A DNA stretch of 64,000 nt from Dehalococcoidia bacterium (GCA_965262235.1 OZ253504.1:3361684-3425683), one strand, 5' to 3'. Counted from the stretch's first letter, positions 8,002-45,091 are shown. Program-made: numbers and translations. Notes: generated by a model from the sequence alone, not told the origin.

Positions 8002-8072
8002 GTGTGGAGCTCCGTTTGCGGATTGATGCGTACTGGCAAGCTAACGCGGCGGATAGGCTGCGCGTCGCGATC

Positions 8073-8708: not shown

Positions 8709-8721
8709 CGAGGCAGGCCTG

Positions 8722-28312: not shown

Positions 28313-29569
28313 ATGACACAATTCGACGATACCCGCAGGGCGCCGGACGATGAGGTCGTTGTCTCGATCCGCGGCCTCTACAAGATCTTCGGCGATGCTG
28401 CCGATGAGGCCATGGCGATGGCGCGCAATGGTGGCTCAAAGGAGCAGATTCAGGAGACGACGGGCGCTGTGGTTGCGCTGTCCGACGTGAGCTTCGATAT
28501 CCGGCGCGGCGAGATCTTCGTCGTCATGGGCCTCTCGGGCTGCGGCAAATCGACGTTGGTGCGCTGCATCAACCGATTGATCGACGCGACCGCGGGCGAG
28601 GTTTGGATCGGCGGTCGCGAAGTCACCGCGATGGATGACGCCGCGCTGCGCGAGCTGCGCCGTCGCGAAGTCGCGATGGTCTTCCAGCACTTCGGGCTGC
28701 TGCCGCACCGCAACGTGATCGAGAACGTCGCCTGGCCGCTCGAAGTGGCCGATGTCGACCGCCGCGAACGGCTGCGCCGCGCCGCCGAGTCGCTCGAGCT
28801 GGTTGGCCTCGGCGACTGGCACACATCGATGCCGCAGCAGCTCTCCGGCGGCATGAAGCAGCGCGTCGGCCTCGCCCGCGGGCTCGCGCTCAATACTCCG
28901 GTGCTGCTGATGGACGAGCCGTTCTCTGCGCTCGACCCGGTGATCCGCCGCGATCTGCAGGACGAGCTGTTGCAGCTACAGGAGTCGGTCCACAAGACGA
29001 TCGTGTTCATCACCCACGATCTCAACGAAGCCGTTCGCGTGGGCGACCGGATCGCGATCATGCGCGACGGGCTCGTGGTCCAGGAAGGCACGCCGAACGA
29101 GGTCGTGCTCTCGCCGGCGAATGCCTTCGTGCGCGAATTCACCCGGGATGTGCGCCTGCACGCGATGGTCAACGCCGGCTCGATCATGGACGAGCCCGCG
29201 CTGGCGCTGCCGGACTCGATGATGGCCTCGATCGCGGCCGCCGCGATGGAGTCGCAGCAGCAGACGCATTGCTGCGTCGTCGATGATCAGCGCCGTTACG
29301 TCGGCACGGCTTATCTCGCCAACGTGCTGACCAGAATCCGCACGGGCGACTGCGCGCTCGCTGCGGCGCCGCTGATCACCGACGGGCGAGTCCTGCAAGA
29401 CACCGTGCTCGATGATCTGGTCCCGGCCGGCCTCCGATCGCAGCACCCGTTGGTCGTGCTCGATGCAAACGGCGTGCTGGTCGGCGAAATCCCACTGGAC
29501 CGCCTGGCGGCCGCGATGGTCTCCGACGAGGCTGCGGTCGCGGCGGCCGGCGAAGGCGCGGAAGGGTAG
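28313..29569 (+). CDS. proV: Glycine betaine/proline ABC transporter ATP-binding protein with tandem C-terminal CBS domains.
   Basis: Walker A GLSGCGKST, signature LSGGMKQRVGLARGL, Walker B LLMDEPFSALD, then a CBS pair. This is the OpuAA/ProV architecture. Confidence 0.85.
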   Translation: MTQFDDTRRAPDDEVVVSIRGLYKIFGDAADEAMAMARNGGSKEQIQETTGAVVALSDVSFDIRRGEIFVVMGLSGCGKSTLVRCINRLIDATAGEVWIGGREVTAMDDAALRELRRREVAMVFQHFGLLPHRNVIENVAWPLEVADVDRRERLRRAAESLELVGLGDWHTSMPQQLSGGMKQRVGLARGLALNTPVLLMDEPFSALDPVIRRDLQDELLQLQESVHKTIVFITHDLNEAVRVGDRIAIMRDGLVVQEGTPNEVVLSPANAFVREFTRDVRLHAMVNAGSIMDEPALALPDSMMASIAAAAMESQQQTHCCVVDDQRRYVGTAYLANVLTRIRTGDCALAAAPLITDGRVLQDTVLDDLVPAGLRSQHPLVVLDANGVLVGEIPLDRLAAAMVSDEAAVAAAGEGAEG

Positions 29570-29575
29570 TCGCGA

Positions 29576-30583
29576 GTGCCGCCGACACCGCTGGCGCTGC
29601 TGCGCGCGACCGTGCGCCTCTTCGTCGGTTCCGAAGGCTCGCAGCCGCTGCCGGCCAGATGGTGGATCGCGCCGTTCATCGTCGTGCTGATGGCGGTCGC
29701 GTTCGTCCTGTCCAGCCTCGCCGCGGGCGAGGAATTTCCCCTCGACATCGGACGCGCCGTGGGCCTCTTCATCGATGAGATCGTGGACTGGCTGACGGAG
29801 AACGTCTCCTGGTTCTTCCAGGCGATCAAGGATGTGCTGACCTGGTTCCTGGTCGCGCTGGAAGACGCGCTGTTCTGGATGCCCTGGCCCGCGTTCATCG
29901 TCACCGTCACGCTGACCGCATGGTTGTTGGTCAGCTTTCGGATGGCGATCTTTTCGGTCGCCGCGCTCCTCCTGGTGGGCGCGTTCGGACTCTGGGAGAG
30001 CACGATGGAGACGGTCGCGCTGATCGTCGTCACTGTGGCGCTGTCGATCCTGGTCGCCGTGCCGATGGGCGTCTGGGCGTCGCAGAACGACCGGCTCGAC
30101 ACCCTGGTACGCCCGATCCTCGACGCGATGCAGACGATGCCGAGCTTCGTCTACCTCGTGCCCGCGATCGCGTTCTTCAGCCTCGGCAACGTCCCGGCGG
30201 TCATCGCCACCCTGATCTACGCCGTGCCGCCCGGCGTGCGCCTGACCAACCTGGGCATCCGCCAGCTGCCGGCGGAGACGGTGGAGGCGGCCGAATCGTT
30301 CGGGACCACCCCCATGCAGCTGCTGCTGAAGGTCAAGATTCCGCTGGCGATCCCGACGATCATGGCGGGCGTCAACCAGACCACGTTGATGGCGCTCTCG
30401 ATGGTCGTGATCGCCTCGCTGGTCGGGGCCGGCGGGCTCGGCCAGGACGTCAATCGTGCGCTGGGTCGGATCGAACCGGGCAACGCCTTCCTGGCCGGGC
30501 TCGGGATCGTGTTCCTGGCGATCATCATCGACCGCATCACCCAGGCGCTGGCGCGCCGCCAGCAGGACGCGGTCGGCGGCTGA
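29576..30583 (+). CDS. proW: Glycine betaine/proline ABC transporter permease.
   Basis: ProW/OpuAB family; EAA-like region ...ESFGTTPMQLLLKVKIPLAIPTIMAGVNQT.... Confidence 0.85.
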   Translation: MPPTPLALLRATVRLFVGSEGSQPLPARWWIAPFIVVLMAVAFVLSSLAAGEEFPLDIGRAVGLFIDEIVDWLTENVSWFFQAIKDVLTWFLVALEDALFWMPWPAFIVTVTLTAWLLVSFRMAIFSVAALLLVGAFGLWESTMETVALIVVTVALSILVAVPMGVWASQNDRLDTLVRPILDAMQTMPSFVYLVPAIAFFSLGNVPAVIATLIYAVPPGVRLTNLGIRQLPAETVEAAESFGTTPMQLLLKVKIPLAIPTIMAGVNQTTLMALSMVVIASLVGAGGLGQDVNRALGRIEPGNAFLAGLGIVFLAIIIDRITQALARRQQDAVGG

Positions 30584-30819
30584 TGCAGCGACGACCCAAC
30601 CCACTGCAGCTCGGGACCGAGCGGCTGGCGCGCCTCCGCGGCCTCGCCGCGATCAGCGTGGCCGTGCTGTGCTGGGTCGTGACCGCGTTCGCGCTGATGG
30701 ACAGCGAACTCTCGCCGGGCGCGTTCCTCGGCGGCGCGAAGGCGCTGTTCGTTGTGCTGGCGGTGCTGATGACGCTCGTTGCGGGCTTCAGAGCGCGCGT
30801 ATTCCGGCGGCGCGGATAG
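30584..30819 (+). CDS. Small two-TM membrane protein (hypothetical).
   Basis: Overlaps the proW stop (ATGA). Two hydrophobic helices. Confidence 0.3.
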
Positions 30820-30964
30820 CTCGCGCGACAGTTCACTTGTGGCGCGCCGAATCGGGTCTCAGCGTGGCGCGGGTGTGGCGCGGGTTCGGTCTTGGACACA
30901 CGCTCCGCAGCGGTTATGGTGGCGCGGTCAGTCCGAACGGGCTGCGCGGGGATTAGGGGCGAGT

Positions 30965-32215
30965 ATGCGATTCGGATCAGGACAAGGGAAACGGCTGGGC
31001 CTGCGGATCACGGCGCTGCTCGCGCTGTGCGCCGTGGTTTGGGTTGCGTTGGCGGCCTGTTCGTCGGACGACGACCAGCCGCAGCAACAGGCGGCGCCGG
31101 TCGCCGCCGCGGAACAGCAGCAGCAGCAAGAGCAACCGGCCCCGGCCGTGCAGCAGCAAGAGCAGCAGCAAGATCAGCAGCAAGCGGTCGCGCAGCAGCA
31201 GGAGCAACAGGAGCAGCAGGCGCCGCCGCCGGCCGCGCAGCAGCAGCAGCAGCAAGAGCAACAGCAGGCGGTCGCGCAGCAGCAGCAACAGGCTGAACCG
31301 CAGGCTGAGGTCGAGGCGGCCGTCAAAGAGGTCATCGTCTTCTCCAACCTCAACTGGCTCTCGGCCGAAGTCCAGACTCGGATCGTCTCCTTCATCGTCG
31401 AGCACGGCTACGGCTACCCGACCGACCTGATCGACGGCGACACGGTCTCGCTCTGGCAGGGCCTGATCAACGACGACACGCAGGTGACGCTGGAGATCTG
31501 GCCGTCGCAGCAGAAGTGGATCGATGACCTCGAACCGGGCGTGATTGAACTGCTCGGCGACAGCCTGGACGAGAACTGGGAGGGCTGGGTCATCCCGCAG
31601 TACATCAAGGATGAGAATCCCGGGCTCGTCTCGGTCACCGACCTGCCTGACTACCAGGATCTGTTCGTGACGGCCGACTCGCGCGGCAAGGCGCGCTTGG
31701 TGGGCTGTATCGCCGGCTGGATGTGCGAGGAGACCAACGCCAACAAGATCGTCGCCTACGGGCTGGAAGACGTCATTGACCTGATCGACCCGGGCAGCGG
31801 CGCGGCGCTGTTCGCCGACCTCGAAGCCGCCTACGCACGCGGCGACGCGTGGCTGGGCTACATATGGGGTCCGACACAGCCAACCGCGACACTCGACCTC
31901 TACCGGCTGGAGGAGCCCGAGTGGACCCAGGACTGCTGGGACGGCGATCAGGGCTGCGCGTATCCGAGCTCCGAAGTGCGGATCGCGGTCAATACGAGCC
32001 TGGTCGATCGCGCGCCCGAGGTGATCACGTTCCTACGCGCCTGGGACTACTCAGCCGCGCAACAGGTCGCCACCGAGATTTGGATGGGCGAGAACAACGA
32101 GACACCCGACGCGGGCGGGATCTGGTACCTACGCAACAATCGCGATGTCTGGAGCCAGTTCATCCCCGCCGATGTCGCCGAGCGCGTCGACGCGGCCCTG
32201 GCCGAGGAGAGCTAG
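30965..32215 (+). CDS. proX: Glycine betaine ABC transporter substrate-binding lipoprotein.
   Basis: Lipobox LAACSS, a long Gln-rich linker, then an OpuAC/ProX-type binding domain (...FSNLNWLSAEVQ...GWVIPQY...WLGYIWGP...). Confidence 0.8.
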   Translation: MRFGSGQGKRLGLRITALLALCAVVWVALAACSSDDDQPQQQAAPVAAAEQQQQQEQPAPAVQQQEQQQDQQQAVAQQQEQQEQQAPPPAAQQQQQQEQQQAVAQQQQQAEPQAEVEAAVKEVIVFSNLNWLSAEVQTRIVSFIVEHGYGYPTDLIDGDTVSLWQGLINDDTQVTLEIWPSQQKWIDDLEPGVIELLGDSLDENWEGWVIPQYIKDENPGLVSVTDLPDYQDLFVTADSRGKARLVGCIAGWMCEETNANKIVAYGLEDVIDLIDPGSGAALFADLEAAYARGDAWLGYIWGPTQPTATLDLYRLEEPEWTQDCWDGDQGCAYPSSEVRIAVNTSLVDRAPEVITFLRAWDYSAAQQVATEIWMGENNETPDAGGIWYLRNNRDVWSQFIPADVAERVDAALAEES

Positions 32216-32311
32216 CTCGGGGCTAGCTCTGGACGCCACAGCGGCGTCAGACGTTCGTTGGCGGTGGCGCCAATCGAGCGTGCTGGCGCCGCGCTGACGC
32301 CGGGGCGCGGA

Positions 32312-32941
32312 TCACGCATCGCCGACGGCGTCGAGCACTCCGGTGGCCGCTCGTCGGCGCTGGGCCCGCGCCACCTCATGGCTGAGGATGACCAGGTCGT
32401 GCTTGCGGCCATCGCGGTCCTTGACGTGTTGTTTGAGGACCGCCTCCGGCTCGAAGCCGAGCGAGCGGAAGACAGTGATCGCCTGCTGCTGGTCGATGGT
32501 CATCTGGGCGATGACCTTTTCCACGTTCATCTCCAGCGCGATCCGAAACGCTTCTTCGGTCAGCAGTCGACCCGCGCCCCGTCCGCGCAGCTCGGGCGCG
32601 ACCAGCGCGCGGAGTTCGGCGACATGCGGCGACCAGGGCAGATCGTTTCGGTCGACCGTCGCATAGCCCCGGATCTCGCCGCCCTCGTCGATCAGCAGGA
32701 GCGACGTCGCGAGGCCGGCCTCAATTCGCTGTAGCCAGATTTCGACCTGTGCCGGGTCGGTGATGTCGCGGCGCAGGAAGAGCAGATCGTGGGGCGGCAG
32801 CTGGCGCGCGAAGGCGACCATCGCCGCGGCGTCGTCGCGGTCCATGAGACGCAGCGTGACGCGGGCGTTGGCGATGGTGGCGGCGGCGGGATAGCGGGTG
32901 TCGTGATTCATTGCAGTTAGACCGAACGCGCTGAGAGCCAT
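32312..32941 (-). CDS. GNAT-family N-acetyltransferase.
   Basis: Acetyl-CoA binding motif RGRGAGRLL in a GNAT fold. Confidence 0.75.
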   Translation of the reverse strand: MALSAFGLTAMNHDTRYPAAATIANARVTLRLMDRDDAAAMVAFARQLPPHDLLFLRRDITDPAQVEIWLQRIEAGLATSLLLIDEGGEIRGYATVDRNDLPWSPHVAELRALVAPELRGRGAGRLLTEEAFRIALEMNVEKVIAQMTIDQQQAITVFRSLGFEPEAVLKQHVKDRDGRKHDLVILSHEVARAQRRRAATGVLDAVGDA

Positions 32942-34089
32942 TGGTCGAGCTTGGGCCAGAGCCGGTATTTGGCGTTGCCTCCGGCGACCAGGCTGGCGTG
33001 GCCGCCGCGCATCACGATCGCCTCGGTGTCCTCCGACTGCACCGCGTCGAGCAACGGCTTGGCTGCTTCGTAGGGCACGACATGGTCATGTTCGGCCATG
33101 GCGTGGATGATCGGGAGCTTGATCGATCCGAGGTCAACGCGCTTGCCGCCCAGCTCCAGCGTGCCTTCGAGCATCGCGTTCTTCCAGTAGAGCTCTTTGA
33201 TCATCTGCCGGAAGGCCTCTCCGGCGAACGGAATCTGATCCGCAGCCCAGCGGTCGACCATCATGAATGACTGGACATACTTGTCGTCGCGGATGCGATC
33301 GAGCACCTGGATCGGGCTCGTGAGGCGGCCGGTGGGCCGCAGCATGTCGAACGCGGAAAGCAGCATCTCGCCGGGCACGTTGCCCAGCGAGTCGACGATG
33401 CGGTCGACATCGAAGTAGCGCTGATCGGTCCACTGCGTGAACAGGCCCATGCCTTTGAAGTTCACGGGGGTCGTGAGGCAGGCAGCGTGGCGGACCGGAG
33501 CATCGGGGTGGGTGGCCAGGTAGAGCATGCCCAGGGTGCCGCCCAGGCAGTAGCCAAGTATGTTCAGTTCGGACTCGCCGGAGTCCTGCTTGATCCGTTC
33601 GATGCAGGCCGGGATGCGCGACAGCGCGTAGTCGTCGAGGGTGAGCGAACTCTCCTCGGGAAGTGGCGCGCCCCAGTCGATCAGGTAGACGTCGTAGCCC
33701 TGCTCGACGAGGAACTCCACCATGCTCTGACCCGGTGTGAGGTCGAGGATGTAGGGCTTACTGACGAGCGAGGTGATCACCAGCAGCGGGAGGCGGTAGA
33801 CCTCTGCCGTCTTGGGACGGTAGTGATACAGCTTCATCGAGCCCTCGCTCAGGATCGTGTCCTTGGGCGTCGAGCCGGGCTGTGGGTCGTCGAGCGAGAT
33901 GTACTCAAGGCCGACGAGTCCGCGACGCAGCACGGTCTCGACGGTCGAGCGGACCTGACTGGCGACGTCATCAGCCACGTCGCCAGGGAAGTCCGCGGGT
34001 GCAATTTCGGGGGTTGAATCATCGGACGCGACGGAAGCGAGCGAATCGGATTGGGGCTCAGCTACGACTGTCGTCAATGTGGACTCCAC
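32917..34089 (-). CDS. phaC: Poly(3-hydroxyalkanoate) synthase, class III/IV PhaC.
   Basis: Lipase box ILGYCLGG (G-x-C-x-G), alpha/beta-hydrolase core, about 390 aa as in class III/IV PhaC. Confidence 0.8.
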   Translation of the reverse strand: MESTLTTVVAEPQSDSLASVASDDSTPEIAPADFPGDVADDVASQVRSTVETVLRRGLVGLEYISLDDPQPGSTPKDTILSEGSMKLYHYRPKTAEVYRLPLLVITSLVSKPYILDLTPGQSMVEFLVEQGYDVYLIDWGAPLPEESSLTLDDYALSRIPACIERIKQDSGESELNILGYCLGGTLGMLYLATHPDAPVRHAACLTTPVNFKGMGLFTQWTDQRYFDVDRIVDSLGNVPGEMLLSAFDMLRPTGRLTSPIQVLDRIRDDKYVQSFMMVDRWAADQIPFAGEAFRQMIKELYWKNAMLEGTLELGGKRVDLGSIKLPIIHAMAEHDHVVPYEAAKPLLDAVQSEDTEAIVMRGGHASLVAGGNAKYRLWPKLDQWLSARSV

Positions 34090-34193
34090 TGTTCGCAGGA
34101 CGCACGCGTGAAGGCAGTGCTGGTCAGTTCCATCGTGACGCGCGTGGGCACGGACGGGTTACGCGCGAGTTAAGGGCGCGCGAGGCTGAACAC

Positions 34194-34604
34194 TCAGTCT
34201 GTATCCGGCGTTGCAGGCCGTACTGCGGGCCGTGTTGCGGCCCGTTTGGTGCGCGCCGGCTTGGGGCTGGGCTGATCGCTTGCGCCCTTCGCCAGGTCGG
34301 CCTGCAGCACAGAGAGGTTCGCCTCGATCGCGGCCAGCCGATTCTCGATGGCCTGCAGGCGGTCGCCGAGGGTCAGCACGTCGGTGCGGGTGGGCACGTT
34401 CAGCGCCGTGAGATACGGGCCCATCGCCTCGCTCATCGTCTTCTGGAAGTGCAGGAAGACATCCAGGTTGCGGCCCAGAGACTGGCTGAATTCGTCGGTG
34501 CCCATCATCTCGTTGAAGAATTCGTTCCACTGGCGCTCGGACTGGGTGGCCCAGTCACGCCAAACGGCTGAGATGTCCGGGGGTGTGGTCTCGGTCTTGC
34601 TCAT
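34194..34604 (-). CDS. Putative PHA synthase partner subunit (PhaE/PhaR-like) with a coiled coil.
   Basis: 136-aa protein immediately upstream of phaC with a C-terminal heptad region (LGDRLQAIENRLAAIEANLSVLQADL). The role is inferred from position. Confidence 0.4.
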   Translation of the reverse strand: MSKTETTPPDISAVWRDWATQSERQWNEFFNEMMGTDEFSQSLGRNLDVFLHFQKTMSEAMGPYLTALNVPTRTDVLTLGDRLQAIENRLAAIEANLSVLQADLAKGASDQPSPKPARTKRAATRPAVRPATPDTD

Positions 34605-35026
34605 CAGGCTTGTTCTCCGGTGCTCGTGTCATCGGTGGCCGCCGCCGCTTCTTCGAAGCGGTCGATGGCGCCCGTGAGCACGGCGTGATAGTGATCCAGC
34701 GTGTCGATCCAGGTGCGGAGGAAGATCTCCCCGGCGGCGGTCAACGAATACATGCGCCGCGCGGGGCCCTGGTCGGACGTGTCCCAGAACGAAGAGACGA
34801 ACCCGCTGCTCTCCATCTGGCGCAAGGCGCGATAGACGGTGCCGCTGTCGGAGCGGGGCAGGCCGGCCTCGCTCAGTTGTTGACTGAGCTGGTAGCCGTA
34901 GGCATCGCAGCCCTTCAGAAAGGCGAGCAGTCCCGTGGCCAGCATCTCGCCGTGCAGGCGGGGCTGGGCGGTCGTGCGCTTGCGCCCGCGGCCCGCTGGC
35001 ATGTCTTCTGGCGCGTCATTTGGCAT
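34604..35026 (-). CDS. PadR-family transcriptional regulator.
   Basis: Winged HTH ...LAFLKGCDAYGYQLSQQLSEAGLPRSDSGTVYRALRQMESSGFVSS.... Confidence 0.75.
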   Translation of the reverse strand: MPNDAPEDMPAGRGRKRTTAQPRLHGEMLATGLLAFLKGCDAYGYQLSQQLSEAGLPRSDSGTVYRALRQMESSGFVSSFWDTSDQGPARRMYSLTAAGEIFLRTWIDTLDHYHAVLTGAIDRFEEAAAATDDTSTGEQA

Positions 35027-35139
35027 GACTGCATTCTGCCGCTATGTGTGAACCGATGCAAGATGCGTATTGCACATAGCTGCATCCCTCCCTACATTCG
35101 TCCCATCAGACCACCAGCGACGCACACGGAGCGAACACC

Positions 35140-35658
35140 ATGACCGAGCAGACCGCGACCGAGCAGGACGCCGCCGAGCAGGCTCCGACCGACGAGTATT
35201 TCGACGCCCTGCTGGCCAGCTACGACGCGCTGGCCCAAGCGATCGAGCAGGCCAGCGAGCGCGGCGTCCGGTTGTCCCGCCAACTGCTCACCGATGTGTC
35301 CGCAGCGCAGCGCAAGGCGCTCGAGCTGGCGCGGCAGGTTGCGGCCGACCCGAGCGACACGGCCGACGCGTACTCGGCGATCATGGAATCCGCCGTGGCC
35401 GCTCAGAGCCAGGCGCTCGACTTCACCCAGATGGCCTACAAAGAGGCCATGGCTGCGGGAACCGAGGGTCGCGAGGCGCTCGATGCCGTGCTCAGCGCCA
35501 GCCGCACCGCCGCCGAGGCGGCGCTCGCGATCTCGCGTGACTGGCAGAGCACGAATCCCTGGGCGGCATTCGTGCAGAGCAGCCTGCGCAAGGGCATGGA
35601 GACCTTCACGACGGCCGCCAACGGCGCGACCAAGGAACCCGCCGACACCAAGGCCTAA
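35140..35658 (+). CDS. Phasin-family PHA-granule-associated protein.
   Basis: Ala/Glu-rich, fully helical 172-aa protein divergent from PadR and beside phaC. The composition is typical of phasins. Confidence 0.55.
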   Translation: MTEQTATEQDAAEQAPTDEYFDALLASYDALAQAIEQASERGVRLSRQLLTDVSAAQRKALELARQVAADPSDTADAYSAIMESAVAAQSQALDFTQMAYKEAMAAGTEGREALDAVLSASRTAAEAALAISRDWQSTNPWAAFVQSSLRKGMETFTTAANGATKEPADTKA

Positions 35659-35659
35659 G

Positions 35660-35840
35660 AATCCTCTGAGCGAATCGGACCTCATCTCCCCTCGCTCCCC
35701 GGGCGGAGATGTCACGGCGTGACGGCGGGCCGCGCGCGCCCCGCTCGGGCAGATACCGCCACGCCGGTGAGTCGGGACCGCTGCCCCCCTCTGCCTTCGG
35801 CATCTCCCCCCGCTTTGCGGGGGGAGAGTTATTCCGAGCA
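35660..35840. repeat. Palindromic repeat elements.
   Basis: GAATCCTCTGAGCGAATCGGACC...GGAGATGTCACGGCGTGAC ... CATCTCCCCCCGCTTTGCGGGGGGAGAG. Confidence 0.7.
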
Positions 35841-35843
35841 CTC

Positions 35844-36656
35844 CTAGTTTCTGGCCTGGCCCTGCCGCTCGCGGGGCGTGTCGGCCAACAGTTCGGCGAC
35901 CGCCTGATACGCCGCGCTGCTGTAGATGATCCCGTAGTGGCTCGTGTCGATCGCCACGTTGTACTCGGGCTCGTTCTCCATGCAGCTCTCGGGCACCACC
36001 AGCCCGTCACGTTTGGCGTAGAGCGCATAGCGGCGAAACGTCGGTTGCTGCGGGCGCATGATGTTCTCGGTGAAGGGGCAGGTGCAGTGTCCGCTGTAGC
36101 AGGCCGGCGCGACGTCCCAGGTCAGATGCGAGCCGGCCTGCCGGCGCACGGCAGCCATCGCCTCGATCAGCGCCGGATGCACGTGGGCGATGTCGTTGAA
36201 CGGCGCCGCCAGCGAGATCAGCAGATCGACCAGCTCAGGATGCCGGAACGCCACACTTCGGGCGATCAGCGCGCCGAGGCTGTGACCGATCAGGTGGACG
36301 AGGGCGCCGGTCTCCTGCGCGGCCCGCTTGACGACGCTCAGAACCACGTCTGAGGCGACATCGGGGCAGTTCACGTTGAGGCCGAGGCCCGAGTAGTAGG
36401 GCTGGTAGCCGATCCGGGCGAGCCACCAGTAGAGCTCCATCATCGACAGGTCGGTGCCCATGAAACCCGGCACCACCACGACCGCTTCGCCGCGCCCGTG
36501 TGGCAGGCCCCAGCCGTAGTACGCGGGAGTGCTCCGCAGGTTCAGCCACTCGCAGAAGAAGCCGAGCTCGTTCTGGATCGGCGTCCGGGCCGGCTGAATG
36601 GAATGGTCGTCGAGATACAGGCCCGAAAACGGCGGCGGAGCGCCCGTGGACGGCAT
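35844..36656 (-). CDS. Alpha/beta hydrolase (lipase/esterase-like); possibly a PHA depolymerase, inferred only from context.
   Basis: GHSLG nucleophile elbow (LIGHSLGALIA). The start is at the ATG giving MPSTGAPP. Confidence 0.6.
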   Translation of the reverse strand: MPSTGAPPPFSGLYLDDHSIQPARTPIQNELGFFCEWLNLRSTPAYYGWGLPHGRGEAVVVVPGFMGTDLSMMELYWWLARIGYQPYYSGLGLNVNCPDVASDVVLSVVKRAAQETGALVHLIGHSLGALIARSVAFRHPELVDLLISLAAPFNDIAHVHPALIEAMAAVRRQAGSHLTWDVAPACYSGHCTCPFTENIMRPQQPTFRRYALYAKRDGLVVPESCMENEPEYNVAIDTSHYGIIYSSAAYQAVAELLADTPRERQGQARN

Positions 36657-36793
36657 CTGCGACACGTGCTCCAGATGTGCATGCGCGGATTGATTCAGCC
36701 TACAAGGGCGAGCTTCGCCGCCCCCGGGTGGTGGTACCTTCGCCCTGACTCGGCCCCGCCACCGACCTGCCACCGACCTGCTCAGGAGCCATC

Positions 36794-38170
36794 ATGGTCC
36801 GCCTCTCCGACCTCCACCCCGAAGAAGCGGAGCATCTGAGGAGCTGGCCGCCGCTTCAGATCGAGCCGGGGGAGTGGATCACGCCCAAGCCGCTGCGCGA
36901 GTCGACGATCGCTCTGATCACCACCGCGGGCCTGCATCGGCGCGATGACGTGCCGTTCGCGTCGGGCGCGGTGGACTATCGGATCATCCCCGGCGACGCT
37001 GACTTCGCGGATGTCATCTCCTCGCACTTGAGTTCCAACTGGGACCGCTCGGCGCTCGCGCAGGATCTGAACGTCGTGCTGCCGATCGAGCGCCTCAGGG
37101 AGTTGGCTGCGGCGGGCGAGATCGGCGGCGTGGCACGCTGGCACTACTCGTTCATGGGCGGGGTCCCGCGCGCCGATCGGCTGGAGCCGTACGCCCGCGA
37201 GGTGGCGGGCCTGCTCAAGCGCGACGGCGTCGACGCCGCCGTGCTCATACCCGTTTGACCGGCCTGCACGCGCGCCGTCGGCGCGCTCGGCCACTACATC
37301 GAGCGTGAGGGCGTGGCCACGACCAGCATCTCGCTGGTCCGCGAGCACAGCGAATACATGAAGCCGCCGCGCGCGCTGTGGGTGCCGTTCTACCTCGGCC
37401 GCCCGTTCGGCGTGCCCGACGACCCCGACTTCCAGCGCGACGTGCTGCGCGCCGCGCTCGACCTGCTACCGACGCTGACCGAGCACGGCATCGTCGACTA
37501 TCCAGTCGAGGCGCCCGACGACTCGTTCTCCCACACGTGGGCCTGCCCGGTCTCGTTCGAGGCGTCGGACGCCGACTCGTTGGGCGCCCGCCTGCGCGGC
37601 GAGGCGCAGCGGCTCGCGCCCTGGTGGCGCGAGACGCACCGGGCTCGCGGACGCACCCTGGTGGGTGCGAGCGCGCCGCTGCCAGACGGACCAGACCGCG
37701 AAGTGACCGTGCCGCAGCACGTCGACACGCTGGCCGCCGCGCTTGTGGACGTCGCGGAGGGCGCGCCGCTCGACACGCCGCCTGTGATCGAGCGGCCGGC
37801 CGGCTCGAACCCCGCCGAAGCGGCAAATGAGCTTGCCTGGTCGCACCCGATGCCCTTCCTGCTGCGTCACCTCGTGCAGGACCTGCGCTGCTTCTATCAG
37901 GAGGCCGCGGCGGGGCAGCCGGGCGCGCAGGCGCCGTCGCATCGCGCGTTGAACGAATGGATCTTTGGCGAGACCGTGCTCGGCGAGGCGATCATCGAGA
38001 TGGGCCGCCGGCTCACCGAGGCCGGCGATCCACGCCTGCGCGCCTTGCGCTTCTGGTCGATCCCCGAAGGCTTCTGGCCCGATGACGACGAGGTTGTCAC
38101 CGCTGCGAGCATGACCGACTCACTCGCGCGCGCCGACGCCGCCAACAAGCTGTTCGCGCCGCGCCAATAG
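36794..38170 (+). CDS. Glycine/betaine/sarcosine/D-proline reductase family 'selenoprotein B' (GrdB-like) homolog with an in-frame TGA (candidate selenocysteine) in a U-x-x-C motif.
   Basis: Track ORFs 36794..37258 and 37313..38170 are in the same frame and separated only by the TGA at 37256-37258. Read-through gives ...DGVDAAVLIPV-U-PACTRAVGALGHYIEREGVATTSISLVREHSEYMKPPRALWVPFYLGRPFG.... The U-P-A-C-T motif resembles the UxxC redox motif of GrdB/PrdB-family proteins. A GC-rich hairpin (GGCC..GCGCGCC-GTC-GGCGCGC..GGCC) lies at 37261-37292. Confidence 0.55.
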
Positions 38171-38258
38171 CGACGCACAATTGAGGCGTTGTCGGAGGCG
38201 TTGTCGGGGCGGCGACCGACTAACTTGCGGACGAACGCACTGGTGAGGACCAACCCAC

Positions 38259-39098
38259 ATGACACAGCGAACCGACGCCTACCCCGAGCTTGACCGCGAC
38301 CTGCGCTTCTTTCCGCTCGGCGTCGAGCAGCCGCGGCAGCTCAGCGCGGAGCAGATTCAGCAGTACAACGACAAGGGCTACATCTTCCCGATCGACATCT
38401 TCTCGAAGTCCGAGATCGAAGTGATCCGCGGCTACTTCGACGATCTGCTGCCCAAAGCGATGGACGCCGGCTGGAACAACTACGAGCTGACCAACTGGCA
38501 CAAGCACTGCCGCGGCGTCTGGGATGTCGTCACCGACAGCCGGATCATCGACGTGATGGAGGACATGCTGGGCGAGACGGTGATCCTGCGCCACAGCCAT
38601 CTGTTCGCCAAGCTGCCCGGCGACGGCATGCGAGTCAGCTGGCACCAGGACGCGTCGTACTGGCCGCTCTCGCCCAGCAAAGTCGTCTCCGCCTGGCTGG
38701 CGCTCGATGATGTCGACCTGGGCAACGGCGCGATGCAGGTGATCCCCGGCTCGCACCACAACGCGCAGGTCGCCTTCCAGGACAGCGCTGCCGACGAGCA
38801 CAACGTGCTCAACCAGACCGTGCCCAATCCTGAGGACTACGGCGACCCGCCGGTCGCGCTGGAGCTGCGCGCCGGCCAGATCTCGCTGCACAGCGACTGG
38901 ATGCTGCACGGCTCCGAGCCCAACGAATCGAACCGCCGCCGCTGCGGCCTGGCGATGCGCTACCTGTCATCCGATGTGCGCGCCTACAACGGCTGGAACG
39001 CGCACTCAATCGTCTGCCGCGGCTCCGAGCCGACCGGTCACTGGGCCAATCACCCGCGCCCGGACGGTGAGTTGATTCCCGTCAAGAGCGCCGAATAA
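38259..39098 (+). CDS. Phytanoyl-CoA dioxygenase (PhyH) family Fe(II)/2-oxoglutarate oxygenase.
   Basis: WHQDASYW...D...H...R motif layout of the PhyH family, 279 aa. Confidence 0.8.
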   Translation: MTQRTDAYPELDRDLRFFPLGVEQPRQLSAEQIQQYNDKGYIFPIDIFSKSEIEVIRGYFDDLLPKAMDAGWNNYELTNWHKHCRGVWDVVTDSRIIDVMEDMLGETVILRHSHLFAKLPGDGMRVSWHQDASYWPLSPSKVVSAWLALDDVDLGNGAMQVIPGSHHNAQVAFQDSAADEHNVLNQTVPNPEDYGDPPVALELRAGQISLHSDWMLHGSEPNESNRRRCGLAMRYLSSDVRAYNGWNAHSIVCRGSEPTGHWANHPRPDGELIPVKSAE

Positions 39099-39139
39099 GC
39101 GGCCGCATCGCAAGGTCACCAGTGGTCGCCTGCGGAAGC

Positions 39140-39200
39140 TCTGAATAACTCTCCCCCCGCCATGCGGGGGGAGAGGGGATCCGACTTGTTTAGAGGATTC
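39140..39200. repeat. Palindromic repeat element.
   Basis: CTCTCCCCCCGCCATGCGGGGGGAGAGGGGATCCGACTTGTTTAGAGGATTCC. Confidence 0.7.
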
Positions 39201-39291
39201 CCAAGCTCGCCCACCAACGCTCTGCATCCTGAGCACGCTTCATGACCGTGAGTCTATGAACGGCGACCCCACTCCCACATACACTCCGTGA

Positions 39292-39825
39292 ATGGCGACG
39301 ACATCACGAGCCAAGGCGAAGCGCAATGCGCGGGCCGCGCGGCGCGCGGAACAGACCGACCCCGAGCGGGCGAACAACCGCGTGCTCGCGCGCAACCGCC
39401 GCGCGACCTGGCAATACGAGATCACGCAGCGGATCGAGGCCGGGATCGAGCTGCGCGGCAGCGAGATCAAATCGCTGCGCATGGGCCGCGGCTCGATCGC
39501 TGAGGCCTACTGCCGCCCGCGCGGCGGACAGCTGTGGCTGATCGGCGCGCACATCGCGCGCTACGAGCCGGCCGGCGAGCAGAACCACGAGCTGACCCGC
39601 GACCGTCGGCTGCTGGTCCATCGCCGTGAAATCCACCAGCTGGAGGCGGCGTTCGAGCAGCGCCGGCTGACCCTGGTGCCGCTGCGCCTGTACCTGAAGC
39701 ACGGCCTCGTCAAGCTGGAGATCGGCGTGGCCCGCGGCAAGCGCGAGCACGAGAAGCGCCAGCGCATTCGCGAGCGCGAGACCAACCGCGAAATCGCCCG
39801 CGTCCTCCGCCAAAACAACGTCTGA
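39292..39825 (+). CDS. smpB: SsrA-binding protein SmpB.
   Basis: ...NRVLARNRRATWQYEITQRIEAGIELRGSEIKSLR...LLVHRREI...LKHGLVKLEIGVARGKREHEKR is canonical SmpB with a basic N-terminal extension. Confidence 0.85.
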   Translation: MATTSRAKAKRNARAARRAEQTDPERANNRVLARNRRATWQYEITQRIEAGIELRGSEIKSLRMGRGSIAEAYCRPRGGQLWLIGAHIARYEPAGEQNHELTRDRRLLVHRREIHQLEAAFEQRRLTLVPLRLYLKHGLVKLEIGVARGKREHEKRQRIRERETNREIARVLRQNNV

Positions 39826-39837
39826 GCCGCGCTGGCG

Positions 39838-40030
39838 GCCCGCAGTCCGCGCATGCCGACACGGGCCGCGTCAAGCGTCGCACGGTCGTCGATCCCGCGA
39901 CGCCCGAGGACGTGGATGCGATGCGGAATCTGATCGAGGGCACCGACATATTCTCGCAGGCGTGCAGCGCGGAGAGTCTCGCGCGCCACGGGGCAGACAC
40001 GCTAGAGTTCACAGAACTTCCCTCAGGAGC
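39838..40030 (+). pseudogene. Fragment of a family III CoA-transferase paralog (internal ~60 codons only).
   Basis: PQSAHADTGRVKRRTVVDPATPEDVDAMRNLIEGTDIFSQACSAESLARHG is clearly homologous to QSAQADTGHGKRRAFVDLETPEGVDAMWHLIEGADVFSQSYRAESLARRG of the intact gene at 43126-44562. No start codon and no flanking domains. Confidence 0.5.
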
Positions 40031-40036
40031 GGCCTC

Positions 40037-41194
40037 ATGGCGAGTCCAGCCACACATGCCACACGTGGCGAAGAACCATCGTTCACCCCCGAGTTCCTGC
40101 CCGTTGGGGAGCTTCACCTTGACGGTAAGAATCCGCGCATCCAGCAGGTCGGAGTGGACCTCGACCAGGAGCGCATTCTCAAGATCCTTTGGGAGGAGTA
40201 CTCCGTAGACGAAGTGGCGCTGTCCATTGCGCAAAACGGCTTCTTCCCTCACGAGCCCTTGTTCGCCATCGAGGAGGGTGGCAGGCTCGTGGTCGTAGAG
40301 GGCAATCGCAGGCTCGCGGCTGTCCGATTACTCCGTGAGCCCGACCTCCGGGAACGCCTTCGTGGAGAAGCGTTGCCCACGATATCCGTAGAAGCGATCG
40401 CCAAGCTCGACTTCGTTCCTGTCATCCGCTGCAAGCGCGAAGGGATTTGGCAATACATCGGCTTCAAGCACGTGAACGGACCACAGGCATGGACATCCCT
40501 TGCCAAAGCCGAGTACGTCGCTTGGGTGAAGAACGAAATCGGCACTTCTCTTGAGGACATCGCCCGCACCATCGGTGACTACCACTCGACAGTCACGCGG
40601 CTATACCGAGCATACATGGCCCTGAAGCAGGCAGAAGATGAGGGCGTCTACGATCGCAAGTGGCGGACTCGGAAACACTTCTCATTCTCACACCTCTACA
40701 CCGGCCTGGACTACCAAGGCATACGGGATTTCACCCGTATCGCCGATCTCGACCCGCCCAAGGCGAGGCCGATCCCCAAGAGCAGACTCAAGGAGTTTGG
40801 TGAGCTGTGCGTCTGGCTGTGGGGGGACACGACACATAACACAGTTCCTCTAATCAAGAGCCAGAATCCCGACCTCCGCGATCTTGATGGAGCCCTCCAG
40901 AAGAAGGCCGGGCTAAGTGCTCTCCGCGCTGGCTATGGCATCTCTGTCGCGGTCGATATCGCCCGTGGCGACACCGCACTCTTCCGGGAGGCGTTGCTCA
41001 AGTCAAAGCAGTCGCTCCAGAATGCCCGCGCGAAGGTAGCAACTGGATTTGAGGGCGAAAAGGATTTGTCAAGGGAGATGGAAGAAATCCTCGTCATCGC
41101 CGATGCCCTTGACGACGACATGCGGACGATCGCGATAGACCCCCTACAGAGGCAGCGAGATAGGCGACGACGCCGGAGAGCCCAGAGGACATAG
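40037..41194 (+). CDS. ParB/Srx-fold (ParB-like nuclease domain, DUF262-like) protein.
   Basis: N-terminal ...LHLDGKNPRIQ...GRLVVVEGNRRLAAVRLL matches the ParB N-terminal domain motif. SD-like AGGAGC sits 7 nt upstream of the ATG. This is the first gene of a low-GC three-gene block. Confidence 0.55.
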   Translation: MASPATHATRGEEPSFTPEFLPVGELHLDGKNPRIQQVGVDLDQERILKILWEEYSVDEVALSIAQNGFFPHEPLFAIEEGGRLVVVEGNRRLAAVRLLREPDLRERLRGEALPTISVEAIAKLDFVPVIRCKREGIWQYIGFKHVNGPQAWTSLAKAEYVAWVKNEIGTSLEDIARTIGDYHSTVTRLYRAYMALKQAEDEGVYDRKWRTRKHFSFSHLYTGLDYQGIRDFTRIADLDPPKARPIPKSRLKEFGELCVWLWGDTTHNTVPLIKSQNPDLRDLDGALQKKAGLSALRAGYGISVAVDIARGDTALFREALLKSKQSLQNARAKVATGFEGEKDLSREMEEILVIADALDDDMRTIAIDPLQRQRDRRRRRRAQRT

Positions 41195-41200
41195 CGGCGG

Positions 41201-42181
41201 ATGGTAGGTCTCATCGTTCCGCCGGCGTCCGCCGACGCAACGGAACACGCTGACTGGCTTGAGTTGACGGCGGCGGTCACATCTGACGCCACTCGTTCAA
41301 GGCAGCATCTAATCGCAGCGATCCGAAGAACGGGCTCAATCGATGGGACTCCCTCCACCGAGGACCTAGACGATGAACCGCTTGATGAGCTGGTTGAGCG
41401 GGAGGATGAAGAGCTTGAGGGAATCGCCGACGCCGCCTTCGAACAACTGGCGAGGCGCGAGAGCTACCTCGGCGCGCACTACCCGTTTGCCGTTGGCGGG
41501 ACGGTGCAAGCCAAGGATGGTGCTCTGGCCTCGCCCTATCTCTTCCTGACGGCGCTGACGAAGTTCAACCCGACGCTGAGGGCATCGGAAGAGAGCGGCG
41601 CCTCGCTCTTTGAACGCGTTAGCAGGACTGCTCTGGTGGAATACCTCGGCGGCGTAGAAACCGTGCGCTCCTACGACTTTGGGTTTCCCCGACGCGACGG
41701 CCCGAAGGCGTTCTACGATGCTCTTGAGGCTCTGTGCCAGCAAATGGGTGAGGGGCTTGGCTGCAAGGTGAAAAGGCCCAAGACAGCCAGCGTCAAGGAC
41801 GCGAAGCTTGACCTCGTGGCATGGCTACCGTTCGAGGATGGCCGTGACAATCAACTTAGCGTATTCGGACAGTGTGCAGCGGGGATGGACTGGTCTGAGA
41901 AGGTCAATGAGCTTCAGCCAGTTGACTTTTGCCGCATATGGTTGAAGGAATCCCCGGCGATGAGTCCCCTTCTCGCTTTCTTCGTGCCCCGGCAGGTTGA
42001 GGAACGCCGCTGGTTTCAGGTTAGCGTTGGGGAGCGACGCATTTTCTTCGACCGGCTCAGGATCGCCCGCTTTCTCGGCAGGCTCGACAAGGACCTCGCC
42101 AAGCGCTGCGAGTCGTGGACGGCGGCAGCTATCGCAGTGGGTGACGCGGCCGGCGCCCCCGTTGCTGACGCGACATCCTAG
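41201..42181 (+). CDS. Hypothetical protein, middle gene of the island.
   Basis: 326 aa, tightly coupled between the ParB-like and Dam genes. The N-terminus is acidic. I recognise no motif with confidence. Confidence 0.4.
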   Translation: MVGLIVPPASADATEHADWLELTAAVTSDATRSRQHLIAAIRRTGSIDGTPSTEDLDDEPLDELVEREDEELEGIADAAFEQLARRESYLGAHYPFAVGGTVQAKDGALASPYLFLTALTKFNPTLRASEESGASLFERVSRTALVEYLGGVETVRSYDFGFPRRDGPKAFYDALEALCQQMGEGLGCKVKRPKTASVKDAKLDLVAWLPFEDGRDNQLSVFGQCAAGMDWSEKVNELQPVDFCRIWLKESPAMSPLLAFFVPRQVEERRWFQVSVGERRIFFDRLRIARFLGRLDKDLAKRCESWTAAAIAVGDAAGAPVADATS

Positions 42182-42183
42182 GC

Positions 42184-43038
42184 ATGAGGTTCGCGAGCCC
42201 GCTTCGCTACCCAGGCGGGAAGGCAGCCATGACGGGCATCCTGCGCACCATCAGGACCTTAAACGGCTTCAACGGTCATGCTGTGGCCGAACCGTTCGCG
42301 GGTGGGGCTGGTGCCGCGCTTACGCTTCTCTATTCTCGGGAGACGCATAAGGTACACATAAACGATCTCGATCCCGCCATCCACGCCTTTTGGTTCTCGG
42401 CGGTTCACGACAGCGAGGCGTTGCTTAATCTCCTCGATCAGACGCCGGTGTCCGTCGAGGAGTGGAAGCGTTGGAGGGATGTCTACCGAAGTGGCCGCGC
42501 CTCGCCTCTTGAACTGGGGTTTGCCACTTTCTACCTCAACCGCTGCAATCGGTCAGGAATCATTCAGAACGGCGGCGTCATAGGTGGGATCGAGCAGAGG
42601 GGGCGTTGGAAAATCGATGCCCGGTTCAACAAGCTTGCCTTGAGGCAGCGGCTTGAACGAATCGCGGAGGAGTGCGACCGAATAGCGGTGTCGAACCTTG
42701 ATGGCATCGACTTCATCGACACGTTAGATGCGGAATCGACGCTCTACTTTGTGGACCCGCCCTACTTCAGAAAAGGGCCCCTGTTGTATCTGAATAGTCT
42801 TAGTGATGACTATCACTCCAGTCTCGCTGAGAAGCTCCAGAGCATTGAGGAAGCGGCATGGGTTCTGACCTACGACGACTGTTCTGAGATCCGCGAGCTG
42901 TATGGAGAGTGGGCGGCGATTCATCCTTTCTCGCTTCGCTACTCGGCACGTGAGCGGCAGCAGGGACGGGAGGTCTTGATCACGCCTCGGTGGATGCACT
43001 TGCCAGAGGCCGTGAGTGAGGCTGCGGTGAGCTGGTGA
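42184..43038 (+). CDS. DNA adenine methyltransferase (Dam/D12-class N6-adenine MTase).
   Basis: N-terminal LRYPGGK (AdoMet motif I), Glu/Asp motif II, and catalytic DPPY (FVDPPYF) motif IV in Dam order. Its ATG immediately follows the upstream stop. Confidence 0.8.
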   Translation: MRFASPLRYPGGKAAMTGILRTIRTLNGFNGHAVAEPFAGGAGAALTLLYSRETHKVHINDLDPAIHAFWFSAVHDSEALLNLLDQTPVSVEEWKRWRDVYRSGRASPLELGFATFYLNRCNRSGIIQNGGVIGGIEQRGRWKIDARFNKLALRQRLERIAEECDRIAVSNLDGIDFIDTLDAESTLYFVDPPYFRKGPLLYLNSLSDDYHSSLAEKLQSIEEAAWVLTYDDCSEIRELYGEWAAIHPFSLRYSARERQQGREVLITPRWMHLPEAVSEAAVSW

Positions 43039-43125
43039 GCCGCGCTGGCGGCGCGCTCGCGGAGTTCCAGTGGCTGGGCGACCAGGCCGAAGCCCGGCAT
43101 CGGGCATGACTTATCTTCGGCTGAT

Positions 43126-44562
43126 GTGACGGTTCGGGACACGTTTGGACCCCTCATGCAGCGCGCCGACCTTGAAGCGATTTCGGAAGCCGCCGGGGTG
43201 CCGGCGACGACCACCCCGATCGAGTTCACGGGGCCCGACGATCCGACCTACCCCTCGCCGCTGCGGCTGGGCGAGGGGACGGCGGCGCTGCTCGCGAACG
43301 TCGCCGGCGCAGTCAGCGACATCACAGCCGCGACCGGCGGAACGCCGCAGTCGGCGCAGATCGATGTCGGCCATGCGCTCGTCTCGATCTCCAGCATGTG
43401 GGTGCTGCGGGTCAACGGCGTGCTCGCGGGCGAGGCGCTGGCCGACGAGATGGCCCCCGGCCAGGGCATCTTCCCGACCCGCGACGGCCGGCATCTCTAT
43501 CTGCTCAGCGGCTTCGCGCACATCGTTGAGCGGACGCTCGAGGCGATCGGCTGCCATGACGTGACGCGCCTCGCCGAGCACGTCGCGGAGCGCGACTCCG
43601 CCGAGCTTGAGGCGGCGCTGGTCGAGGCGCAGCTGACCGGCGTCGTGCTGCGCGACGCGGAGCAGTGGTCAGCCCACCCACAGGGGCGGCTGCTCGCGCA
43701 GTCGCCGGCGGTGCGGGTCGAGCGGATCGGCGACGCCCCGCCCACGCCGCTGCCGGAGGGCGCGCAACCGCTCGCAGGACTGCGCGTGCTCGATTCGACG
43801 CGCGTGCTGGCCGGGCCGACGATCTCGCGCACGCTCGCCGGTCTCGGCGCCGATGTCCTGCACGTCGGCTCGCCGCACGTGCCCGACCTGCAGTCCGCGC
43901 AGGCCGACACGGGCCACGGCAAGCGTCGCGCGTTCGTCGATCTGGAGACGCCCGAGGGCGTGGACGCGATGTGGCACCTGATCGAGGGCGCCGACGTGTT
44001 CTCGCAGTCGTACCGCGCGGAGAGTCTGGCGCGGCGCGGGCTGGGCCTCGAGGCGGTGGCGGCGCGGCGGCCGGGCATCATCTATGTCTCCGAGAACGCC
44101 TACGGCCAATCGGGGCCGTGGCGCGAGAAGCGCGGCTTCGACGGCAACGTGCAGGCCGCCAGCGGGATCGCAGCGCTGCACCAGCGGTCCGACCAGTTCG
44201 CGCCGGCGGGCCCGGCGATGGCGATGAACGACTACTGCACGGGCTACTGGGGCGCGTACGGCGTGCTGGAAGCGCTCAAGCGCCGCGCGACCGAGGGCGG
44301 CTCGTGGCACGTGACGGTCTCGCTCGGCCAGACCGCGGCCTGGTTCCTGCGGATGGGCACGCCGCACGAGATCGGCGCGGATCATCCCGCGCGCGATCCG
44401 GAGATCGGCTATCGGCTGGCCGCGCAGTTCTCGGAGGATGTCGAGTCGGACTACGGGACGCTGACGCGTCTGAAGTTCCCGATCAGCTTTTCCGACACCG
44501 AGCCCGCCTGGTCGCGCACCGTCAAGCCCGGCGCCCACGCCCCGGAGTGGCTGCCGCGCTAA
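43126..44562 (+). CDS. CoA-transferase family III (CaiB/BaiF-like) domain protein with a ~200-aa N-terminal extension.
   Basis: LAGLRVLDSTRVLAGPTISRTLAGLGADVLHV..ESLARRGLG...GFD are family III CoA-transferase motifs starting near residue 205. Confidence 0.7.
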   Translation: MTVRDTFGPLMQRADLEAISEAAGVPATTTPIEFTGPDDPTYPSPLRLGEGTAALLANVAGAVSDITAATGGTPQSAQIDVGHALVSISSMWVLRVNGVLAGEALADEMAPGQGIFPTRDGRHLYLLSGFAHIVERTLEAIGCHDVTRLAEHVAERDSAELEAALVEAQLTGVVLRDAEQWSAHPQGRLLAQSPAVRVERIGDAPPTPLPEGAQPLAGLRVLDSTRVLAGPTISRTLAGLGADVLHVGSPHVPDLQSAQADTGHGKRRAFVDLETPEGVDAMWHLIEGADVFSQSYRAESLARRGLGLEAVAARRPGIIYVSENAYGQSGPWREKRGFDGNVQAASGIAALHQRSDQFAPAGPAMAMNDYCTGYWGAYGVLEALKRRATEGGSWHVTVSLGQTAAWFLRMGTPHEIGADHPARDPEIGYRLAAQFSEDVESDYGTLTRLKFPISFSDTEPAWSRTVKPGAHAPEWLPR

Positions 44563-44732: not shown

Positions 44733-45091
44733 GGGGACGAAAGGGATCGACAGCGGCCGACTGATCTGTGGCTGCGCGCCGAGGTGGCGTTCCTCGCTAA
44801 TCCGCGCCAACCTTTCCTTAACTGGCGAAACCAAGGAATTCGCACTCGCCGCTTAACCGCGGCGACGTCGCCTCCCGACTGCCGCCGAACCGGTGGGAGT
44901 GCGGCGCCATCAGTTTGGCCGCTCGCCGCGGGATGACGGGACCGCAGCGCTAAGACCATTCCGGATCACCTGGTCGTAACGGCTGGCCGACGCGCCGGCG
45001 ACCGGGGAAAACTTAAGCGACGGCTACGCGCGTAGAGGCTGCGGGGAGCGACCGACTGGACGGGGAGTTCGATTCTCCCCCGTCTCCACCA
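44733..45091 (+). ncRNA. ssrA: tmRNA (ssrA).
   Basis: 5' GGGGACGAAAGGGATCGACAGCGG... The 3' tRNA-like end is GGACGGGGAGTTCGATTCTCCCCCGTCTCCACCA, giving T-arm GGGAG/CTCCC and acceptor 5'-GGGGACG pairing 3'-CGTCTCC, then ACCA. The internal tag ORF ends ...GETKEFALAA-TAA (44854-44856), the canonical ...ALAA degradation tag. Confidence 0.7.

Follow-up and report, generated by a model that had tools for sequence, protein, structure and literature searches.

The closest described systems to the gene analyzed here are the D-proline and glycine/betaine reductases, whose B proteins contain selenocysteine (Sec). The D-proline reductase genes prdA, prdB and prdH are co-encoded in operons, and maturation of the pyruvoyl subunit PrdA by PrdH takes place when PrdB is present, with PrdC for re-reduction (PMC11229817). 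We analyzed a 64,000-nucleotide stretch of DNA from a Dehalococcoidia bacterium (GCA_965262235.1 OZ253504.1:3361684-3425683; hereafter the window), which carries at positions 36794-38170 a gene with an in-frame UGA codon. It is likely that this gene encodes one 458-residue, stand-alone PrdB-like selenoprotein that, lacking any accompanying pyruvoyl-subunit or GrdA partner, does not serve as a B subunit in a D-proline or glycine/betaine reductase complex.

Translation of 36794-38170 in the plus strand gave one frame, in which the TGA at 37256-37258 is the sole internal stop, in the context GVDAAVLIPV-stop-PACTRAVGALGHYIEREG. The two mechanical open reading frames (ORFs), 36794-37258 and 37313-38170, were found to lie in the identical frame and to be parted only by this TGA, as an earlier note on the window had stated. 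The U-x-x-C arrangement that it had pointed out was also seen, the motif being U155-P-A-C158 preceded by PV. Full-length relatives in the family have about 400-460 aa, and tblastn matches in the closest genomes span residues 1-457 of the window protein. The elements of the gene are as follows.

36784-36788, plus strand: Shine-Dalgarno-like AGGAG, 5 nt before the ATG, read from the sequence
36794-38170, plus strand: intact selenoprotein gene of 458 codons, from ATG to Q458, followed by a TAG, with Sec at codon 155
36884-37492, plus strand: PrdB-like alpha/beta domain, residues 31-233, on both sides of the Sec codon
37256-37258, plus strand: the UGA for U155 (Sec); TGA in 87/87 family copies, Cys in four homologs
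37261-37292, plus strand: extended hairpin of an outer stem (GGCC 37261-37264 with GGCC 37289-37292) and the upper stem, present in the window as well as in the relatives closest to it
37265-37267, plus strand: TGC for Cys158, the putative resolving cysteine of U-x-x-C, invariant in 84/84 full-length sequences
37270-37286, plus strand: upper stem-loop of the Sec insertion sequence (SECIS), a 7-bp stem of GCGCGCC (37270-37276) and GGCGCGC (37280-37286) with the loop GUC (37277-37279)
37499-38167, plus strand: family-specific C-terminal helical domain, residues 236-458, outside Pfam and NCBIfam
37544-37546, plus strand: invariant Cys251 (84/84 sequences), within W-A-C-P-V-S-F of the interdomain linker

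The family was sampled by a search of GTDB in which each species was represented by a single genome, which gave at least 600 matches, and 79 loci were retained; the copies in these loci, together with those in locus L001 (80 related loci in all) and in the window, make up the 87 copies examined. The codon is TGA in every one of these 87 copies, a constancy well past what chance would give, and the motif around it reads P-[VI]-U-P-x-C-[TS]. TGA-bearing copies occur in Chloroflexota, Actinomycetota and Alpha/Gammaproteobacteria (four or more phyla). The nearest relatives among the matches listed are metagenome-assembled genomes (MAGs) of Dehalococcoidia with 92-93% identity, which places the window in a Dehalococcoidia (Chloroflexota) genome, with 69% G+C, and further members were found in marine Acidimicrobiia, Pseudomonadales/Azotimanducaceae, Alphaproteobacteria and one Desulfarculaceae MAG. 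The two halves of the gene, whose conservation as separate genes the earlier note would have counted against its proposal, were never separate in 87 relatives. The 54 nt (18 codons) from the TGA to the supposed GTG start at 37313 are conserved in the encoded protein and carry numerous synonymous differences, and the pattern PxC[TS]xxVGxLxxxxE is conserved just past the TGA. Cys occupies the Sec position in four rare full-length homologs, P0017 (VCPNCTR), P0068 (VCPLCTR), P0297 (VCPSCTR) and P0310 (VCPNCSR).

The smpB gene and a methyltransferase gene in the window both terminate with TGA, and therefore this codon is not globally reassigned here. Selenium machinery, whose absence the earlier note would have taken as evidence against Sec, was found beside the gene in relatives, as selD, selA and tRNA-Sec. 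At locus L072, selD (TIGR00476, 353 bits) lies directly downstream of the PrdB-like gene, whereas at L079 a cluster of selA (564 bits), tRNA-Sec, a selB-like ORF and selD (5225-9855) is divergent from it. A tRNA-Sec lies 1.5 kb upstream of the PrdB-like gene at L064, and selA (500 bits) lies 6.5 kb away at L004, a Dehalococcoidia locus whose copy shares 68% identity with the window protein. In the L072 and L079 genomes, the PrdB-like protein may be a principal client of the Sec machinery. The selD gene at L072 (11354-12397, plus strand) is a selenoprotein gene too, with an in-frame TGA in SCAG-stop-AGK (CAG-U-AGK).

The SECIS-type hairpin supplied further evidence for Sec decoding. The 17-nt upper stem-loop begins 11 nt past the UGA, and 11 nt and 17 nt are reportedly the minimal geometry of the SECIS of Escherichia coli fdhF. 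Across 80 distinct family sequences, 89.5% of the cells of the upper stem were paired, as compared with 44-61% with a slid partner. We found 52 double-sided changes in 5/7 pairs, and the observed covariation score was reached by 0/500 shuffles. In several covarying pairs, a base whose change alters the amino acid is coupled to a wobble base whose change is synonymous, such as base 1 of an Arg/Gly codon with base 3 of an Ala codon, and base 1 of an Ala/Thr codon with base 3 of a Gly codon; protein constraint cannot explain such pairs. The GC-rich hairpin that the earlier note had placed at 37261-37292 is thus present and its upper stem covaries, but its outer GGCC/GGCC stem was not conserved in the family alignment. 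On this comparative evidence, the gene is a genuine selenoprotein gene, in which the UGA at 37256-37258 is predicted to be read as Sec.

We next consider the protein itself. The TIGR04483 PrdB model aligned residues 31-233 with its positions 24-226 of 238 (E 3.6e-33, 115 bits), below its curated equivalog cut-off of 300 bits. This alignment places Sec near model position 148, as compared with U151 of Clostridioides difficile PrdB, an estimate based on the offset and not on a residue-by-residue alignment. The search against PF07355 (GRDB) that the earlier note had suggested gave a score of 37 bits (E 3.1e-9), the cut-off being 22, with residues 32-151 aligned to positions 221-344 of 347, so that the match stops 4 residues short of Sec. 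TIGR01918 (46.4 against 65.45), GrdH (48.9 against 775), GrdF (47.7 against 800) and GrdB (39.4 against 602) were all below cut-off, the Grd matches starting from profile position ~221, and all the models for various selenoprotein B likewise fell under their cut-offs. The full-length protein was recognized by no NCBIfam model. The label of GrdB family used in the earlier note therefore applies at the level of the GRDB superfamily, since PF07355 is above cut-off, but the protein is nearer to PrdB (115 bits) than to GrdB, GrdH or GrdF (39-49 bits).

About half of the protein, the C-terminal domain, was absent from the earlier note. Residues 236-458 matched no Pfam or NCBIfam family and no solved fold. 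An exhaustive phmmer search with the C-terminal part against 1.84 billion representatives returned 211 matches, all of the same family; the best 150 of the 211 comprised 148 post-Sec fragments of at most 315 aa and 2 full-length Cys forms. By these searches, the C-terminal domain is confined to this architecture. An AlphaFold2 (AF2) model of the C-terminal domain of the window protein had a mean predicted local distance difference test (pLDDT) score of 85.7 and a predicted template modeling score of 0.83. In the AF2 model of the Cys homolog P0017 (pLDDT 83.4), the alpha/beta domain is followed by a low-confidence loop and then a helical bundle, and the Sec position comes right after the strand 149-153 and before the helix 159-172. 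Residues invariant in the 84 full-length sequences are R63, S80, N82, D84, R85, N93, H117, U155, P156, C158, R183, PPRALWV (191-197, including R193), R203, Q214, C251, E270 and R287, and this density of invariant polar residues suggests an enzyme-like character. Two entries with unusual layouts were noticed: P0378 (257 aa) has an alpha/beta-hydrolase-like N-terminus joined to pieces of the C-terminal domain (EQWACPLNL...RGRTLF...LIPEGRYRGGSAF), and P0056 (368 aa) is a gene model omitting the Sec region (HYSFMG-CTRAV). These may be assembly or gene-model artefacts and not real architectures.

Compared with PrdB of C. sticklandii and C. difficile, the window protein shows homology over the entire PrdB length and has the UxxC motif in common, with Sec at U155 as against U151 in C. 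difficile PrdB (PMC11229817). It differs in its additional C-terminal helical domain of ~220 residues with an invariant Cys, and in its hosts, which are Chloroflexota, marine Actinomycetota and Proteobacteria, not clostridia. GrdB, GrdF and GrdH belong with it to the superfamily PF07355 and have UxxC, and in both groups Sec lies just beyond the end of the Pfam model. However, only the C-terminal half of GrdB (from ~221) is matched, the N-terminal GrdB domain of ~220 residues being missing from the window protein, and the GrdB motif is UxxCxxC in contrast to UxxC.

The gene also differs from prdB in its company, as no genes for PrdA, PrdH, PrdC, PrdD, PrdE or PrdF lie near it. Among the 10 window ORFs in 28976-44562, we found no PrdA, PrdH, PrdC or grd partners. 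The PrdA/GrdE, GrdA and thioredoxin families were absent from the top 25 Pfam families listed in each scan of the neighborhoods (75 co-directional neighbors and 58 recurrent clusters, within 10 kb at 80 loci, with ORFs from a crude caller), and no grdA, grdE (or grdG/grdI) or grdC/D was seen in the same window and 80-locus scans. The statement of the earlier note that no grd or prd genes are nearby, and its description of the gene as an orphan, thus hold for the window ORFs and for the families listed at the 80 loci.

Within the reading that we favor, that of a stand-alone PrdB-like selenoprotein, SelB and tRNA-Sec would be directed to the UGA by the stem-loop downstream of it. The Sec selenolate would then attack a small, probably anionic substrate bound by the numerous invariant Arg, Asn, Asp and His residues, and Cys158 would resolve the selenium adduct to give a selenenylsulfide. 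Re-reduction would be carried out by cellular thiols (thioredoxin or similar), possibly relayed via C251. Tandem or multiple paralogs occur often in Dehalococcoidia, which suggests a substrate-diversified enzyme. Tandem paralog pairs, with two Sec sites 1.4-3.6 kb apart, were seen in Dehalococcoidia/Chloroflexota at L042, L043, L054, L056, L057 and L059, and OZ244584.1 carries copies both at L003 and, separately, at L041.

Several observations weigh against this reading. The mechanism is modeled on PrdB, whose chemistry requires the pyruvoyl partner that is missing here, and no neighbor is conserved between phyla across the 80 loci, so that the surroundings of the gene point to no substrate, partner or reductant. 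No sel genes and no tRNA-Sec were found inside the 64-kb window, in which an Rfam scan at gathering thresholds found only transfer-messenger RNA (tmRNA); the Sec competence of this genome is presumed from its relatives. Folded alone, the window hairpin did no better than dinucleotide shuffles (z = -0.58), and since single-sequence folding was not significant in sequence of 69% G+C, covariation was relied on instead. Cys251, the putative relay, sits in the low-confidence loop of the AF2 model. Sequence searches of the PDB, one of them with a profile of the C-terminal columns only, found no GRDB-superfamily structure against which the active site could be checked.

One alternative, which we regard as rather unlikely, is that the protein serves an antioxidant system as a general selenol/thiol-disulfide oxidoreductase, reducing peroxiredoxin or AhpD-type proteins for instance, rather than small molecules. 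The position of UxxC after a beta-strand and before a helix in the AF2 model is like that in thiol oxidoreductases. In addition, two genes for AhpD-like CxxU selenoproteins and one for AhpC-TSA flank the gene at L084 and L085, both betaproteobacterial loci, the Cys homolog P0017 adjoins a gene for a peroxiredoxin (Prx)-like W-U-P-Y-C selenoprotein, and an Rv2466c-like thiol-redox gene lies near P0018. However, each of these associations is limited to a single lineage, and tblastn with the AhpC and AhpD-like neighbors was negative in the other 80 loci. Furthermore, generic oxidoreductase selenoprotein families are usually rich in Cys homologs, as far as the available table for Global Ocean Sampling (GOS) data goes, whereas the PrdB-like family is almost all Sec, and the invariant Arg, Asn, Asp and His residues together with the paralog expansion resemble a substrate-specific enzyme. 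A substrate-specific reductase is therefore favored over a generic disulfide oxidoreductase, because of the near-exclusive use of Sec, the invariant polar residues and the paralog expansion.

An association with AhpC/AhpD was considered as a general feature of the family and rejected, as tblastn found it only at L084 and L085. The paralogous AhpD-like genes (L084 6857-7471 and 8784-9380, and also at L085) have an in-frame stop in HGCHY-stop-MAH (CxxU), and with the AhpC-TSA gene (6300-6827) and a T4-deiodinase-like gene nearby they form a small selenoprotein island at L084. The gene beside P0017 (L081 9362-10126, minus strand) encodes a membrane-anchored Prx-like protein with an in-frame stop in FFRAHW-stop-PYC (UxxC), and is split in the public annotation into ORFs of 129 aa and 102 aa.

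A second alternative, which we consider quite improbable, is that the family represents a self-sufficient, pyruvoyl-independent GrdB/PrdB branch in aerobic marine bacteria, in which the selenolate displaces a good leaving group directly. Betaine reductase protein B (GrdH/GrdI) is a GrdB-type selenoenzyme that acts on a quaternary amine and needs no pyruvoyl group, and it thus offers a precedent for chemistry at Sec in which PrdA and GrdE play no part. The partners of GrdH in anaerobes are GrdI, GrdA and GrdC/D, none of which was seen in the neighborhood of the window gene. The leaving group would be the trimethyl-/dimethyl-ammonium or sulfonium of abundant osmolytes such as proline betaine, glycine betaine and related compounds, and the unique C-terminal domain with Cys251 would stand in for PrdA/GrdE and GrdA. 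In a more speculative variant, self-cleavage at Cys251 would generate a pyruvoyl group in cis. The window lineage has a gene for an OpuAC-type betaine ATP-binding cassette (ABC) transporter before the gene, and PhyH and CaiB-type coenzyme A (CoA)-transferase genes after it, which lends weak local support to the osmolyte reading.

It is very improbable that the gene encodes a genuine PrdB subunit of D-proline reductase, with PrdA encoded elsewhere in the genome. The top-scoring named family is indeed TIGR04483 PrdB, the whole of whose model is covered, JGI and NCBI call the N-terminal fragments 'D-proline reductase (dithiol) PrdB', and the marine 'proline reductase PrdB' of selenoproteome surveys has matching PF07355 and UxxC features in the survey text available. 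However, the score is far under the equivalog cut-off, neither prdA nor prdH was found in the window ORFs or among the families listed at the 80 loci, and the 220-residue extra domain is not in PrdB. The hosts, judging by lineage names, are probably aerobic marine heterotrophs, not amino-acid fermenters.

Readthrough of the UGA without Sec, by a near-cognate or suppressor tRNA or under a reassigned code, is extremely improbable. The lack of sel genes within the window itself would be in keeping with it, but TGA terminates conserved window genes including smpB, a covarying SECIS-type hairpin follows the UGA with the canonical spacing, relatives carry adjoining selD, selA and tRNA-Sec, and homologs swap in Cys to give the classic Sec/Cys pair. 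A reading of the locus as a pseudogene, as the product of a sequencing error, or as two genes (a truncated PrdB remnant and an unrelated ORF from GTG 37313) has a practically negligible probability and is refuted by the comparative data, since, even though gene callers divide the gene everywhere into public halves of 154-156 aa and 250-300 aa, the in-frame TGA is identical in all copies across the phyla, the protein is conserved through the TGA-to-GTG stretch, full-length Cys forms exist, and the PrdB model aligns through the TGA.

The neighbors of the selenoprotein gene in the window include the following.

32917-34089, minus strand: PhaC-like gene, in the interval from the OpuAC gene to the selenoprotein gene
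35844-36773, minus strand: alpha/beta hydrolase gene, on the upstream flank of the selenoprotein gene
38259-39098, plus strand: PhyH-family dioxygenase gene (PF05721, E 6.7e-29), 88 nt downstream

No terminator-like site was found between the selenoprotein gene and the PhyH gene, and the two are possibly co-transcribed. Farther neighbors in the window, besides the PhaC-like gene, are a gene for an OpuAC-type binding protein, smpB, a CoA-transferase III gene and the tmRNA. A 93%-identical relative has, in this order, a betaine-type ABC transporter, the split GRDB, PhyH, SmpB and CoA-transferase. PhyH adjoins the gene only in the 5 closest Dehalococcoidia loci of the 80. The neighbors for polyhydroxyalkanoate (PHA) metabolism and PhyH, which the earlier note had described, are therefore present in the window but represent local synteny only, and an operon with PhyH, OpuAC or PHA genes was rejected as a feature of the family, as it was seen only in the closest relatives.

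As compared with the 93%-identical loci L001 and L002, the window has two extra blocks. The block at 32312-36773 carries the PhaC-like and alpha/beta hydrolase genes, and that at 39962-43038 has three ORFs, including one for a D12 N6-adenine methyltransferase (42184-43038), between smpB and the CoA-transferase gene and beside the tmRNA. The block with the methyltransferase ORF could be a mobile island or a restriction-modification one. For the tmRNA (window 44733-45091, plus strand), ARAGORN gave the tag AATSPPDCRRTGGSAAPSVWPLAAG followed by a stop, in contrast to GETKEFALAA and a stop for the orthologs in L002 and L003; the odd tag is probably due to a miscalled resume codon. Two antisense ORFs, window 36782-37348 and 37245-37826 (both minus strand), overlap the selenoprotein gene. 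These are spurious and recur (cluster c2, 34 loci) only through the conserved sense strand in G+C-rich DNA, and such ORFs mislead crude gene callers.

The literature searches returned nothing relevant on PrdB-like or GrdB-like selenoproteins, and nothing useful on Sec in SAR202 or on PrdA in aerobic marine bacteria. In the available parts of marine selenoproteome surveys, by contrast, a 'proline reductase PrdB' (PF07355, UxxC) is the third most abundant selenoprotein family of the Sargasso Sea, with 42 Sec forms as against 1 Cys form (2005; PMC1088965); it has 235 sequences in the GOS data of 2008 (PMC2398784), and accounts for 6.4% of the selenoprotein genes of marine origin in the Tara/GOS survey of 2021. 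These surveys are by Zhang, Gladyshev and co-workers. The features of the window family agree with those given for this 'PrdB' in these parts, namely the PF07355 match, UxxC, marine hosts and Sec forms far in excess of Cys forms. The two are most likely the same family, as judged by these common features and not by sequence comparison. As far as the accessible survey text goes, the family is filed under PrdB with D-proline reduction, and the C-terminal domain, the absence of PrdA and the hosts are not described there.

The family is thus not new, and the window gene, in itself ordinary, adds one further member to a large and mostly marine family that is already catalogued. Its annotation is affected throughout: public databases hold N-terminal stubs of ~155 aa named PrdB and tails of ~270 aa named 'hypothetical protein', and cutting at the Sec codon has yielded hundreds of such mis-split stubs and tails. 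To call it a 'proline reductase' is to imply Stickland chemistry of anaerobes, at odds both with the hosts and with the missing PrdA. The available survey text places the marine 'PrdB' family time and again with the ocean's most abundant selenoproteins, and it would accordingly be a major marine selenium sink. Its near-absolute retention of Sec suggests a chemistry beyond the reach of cysteine.

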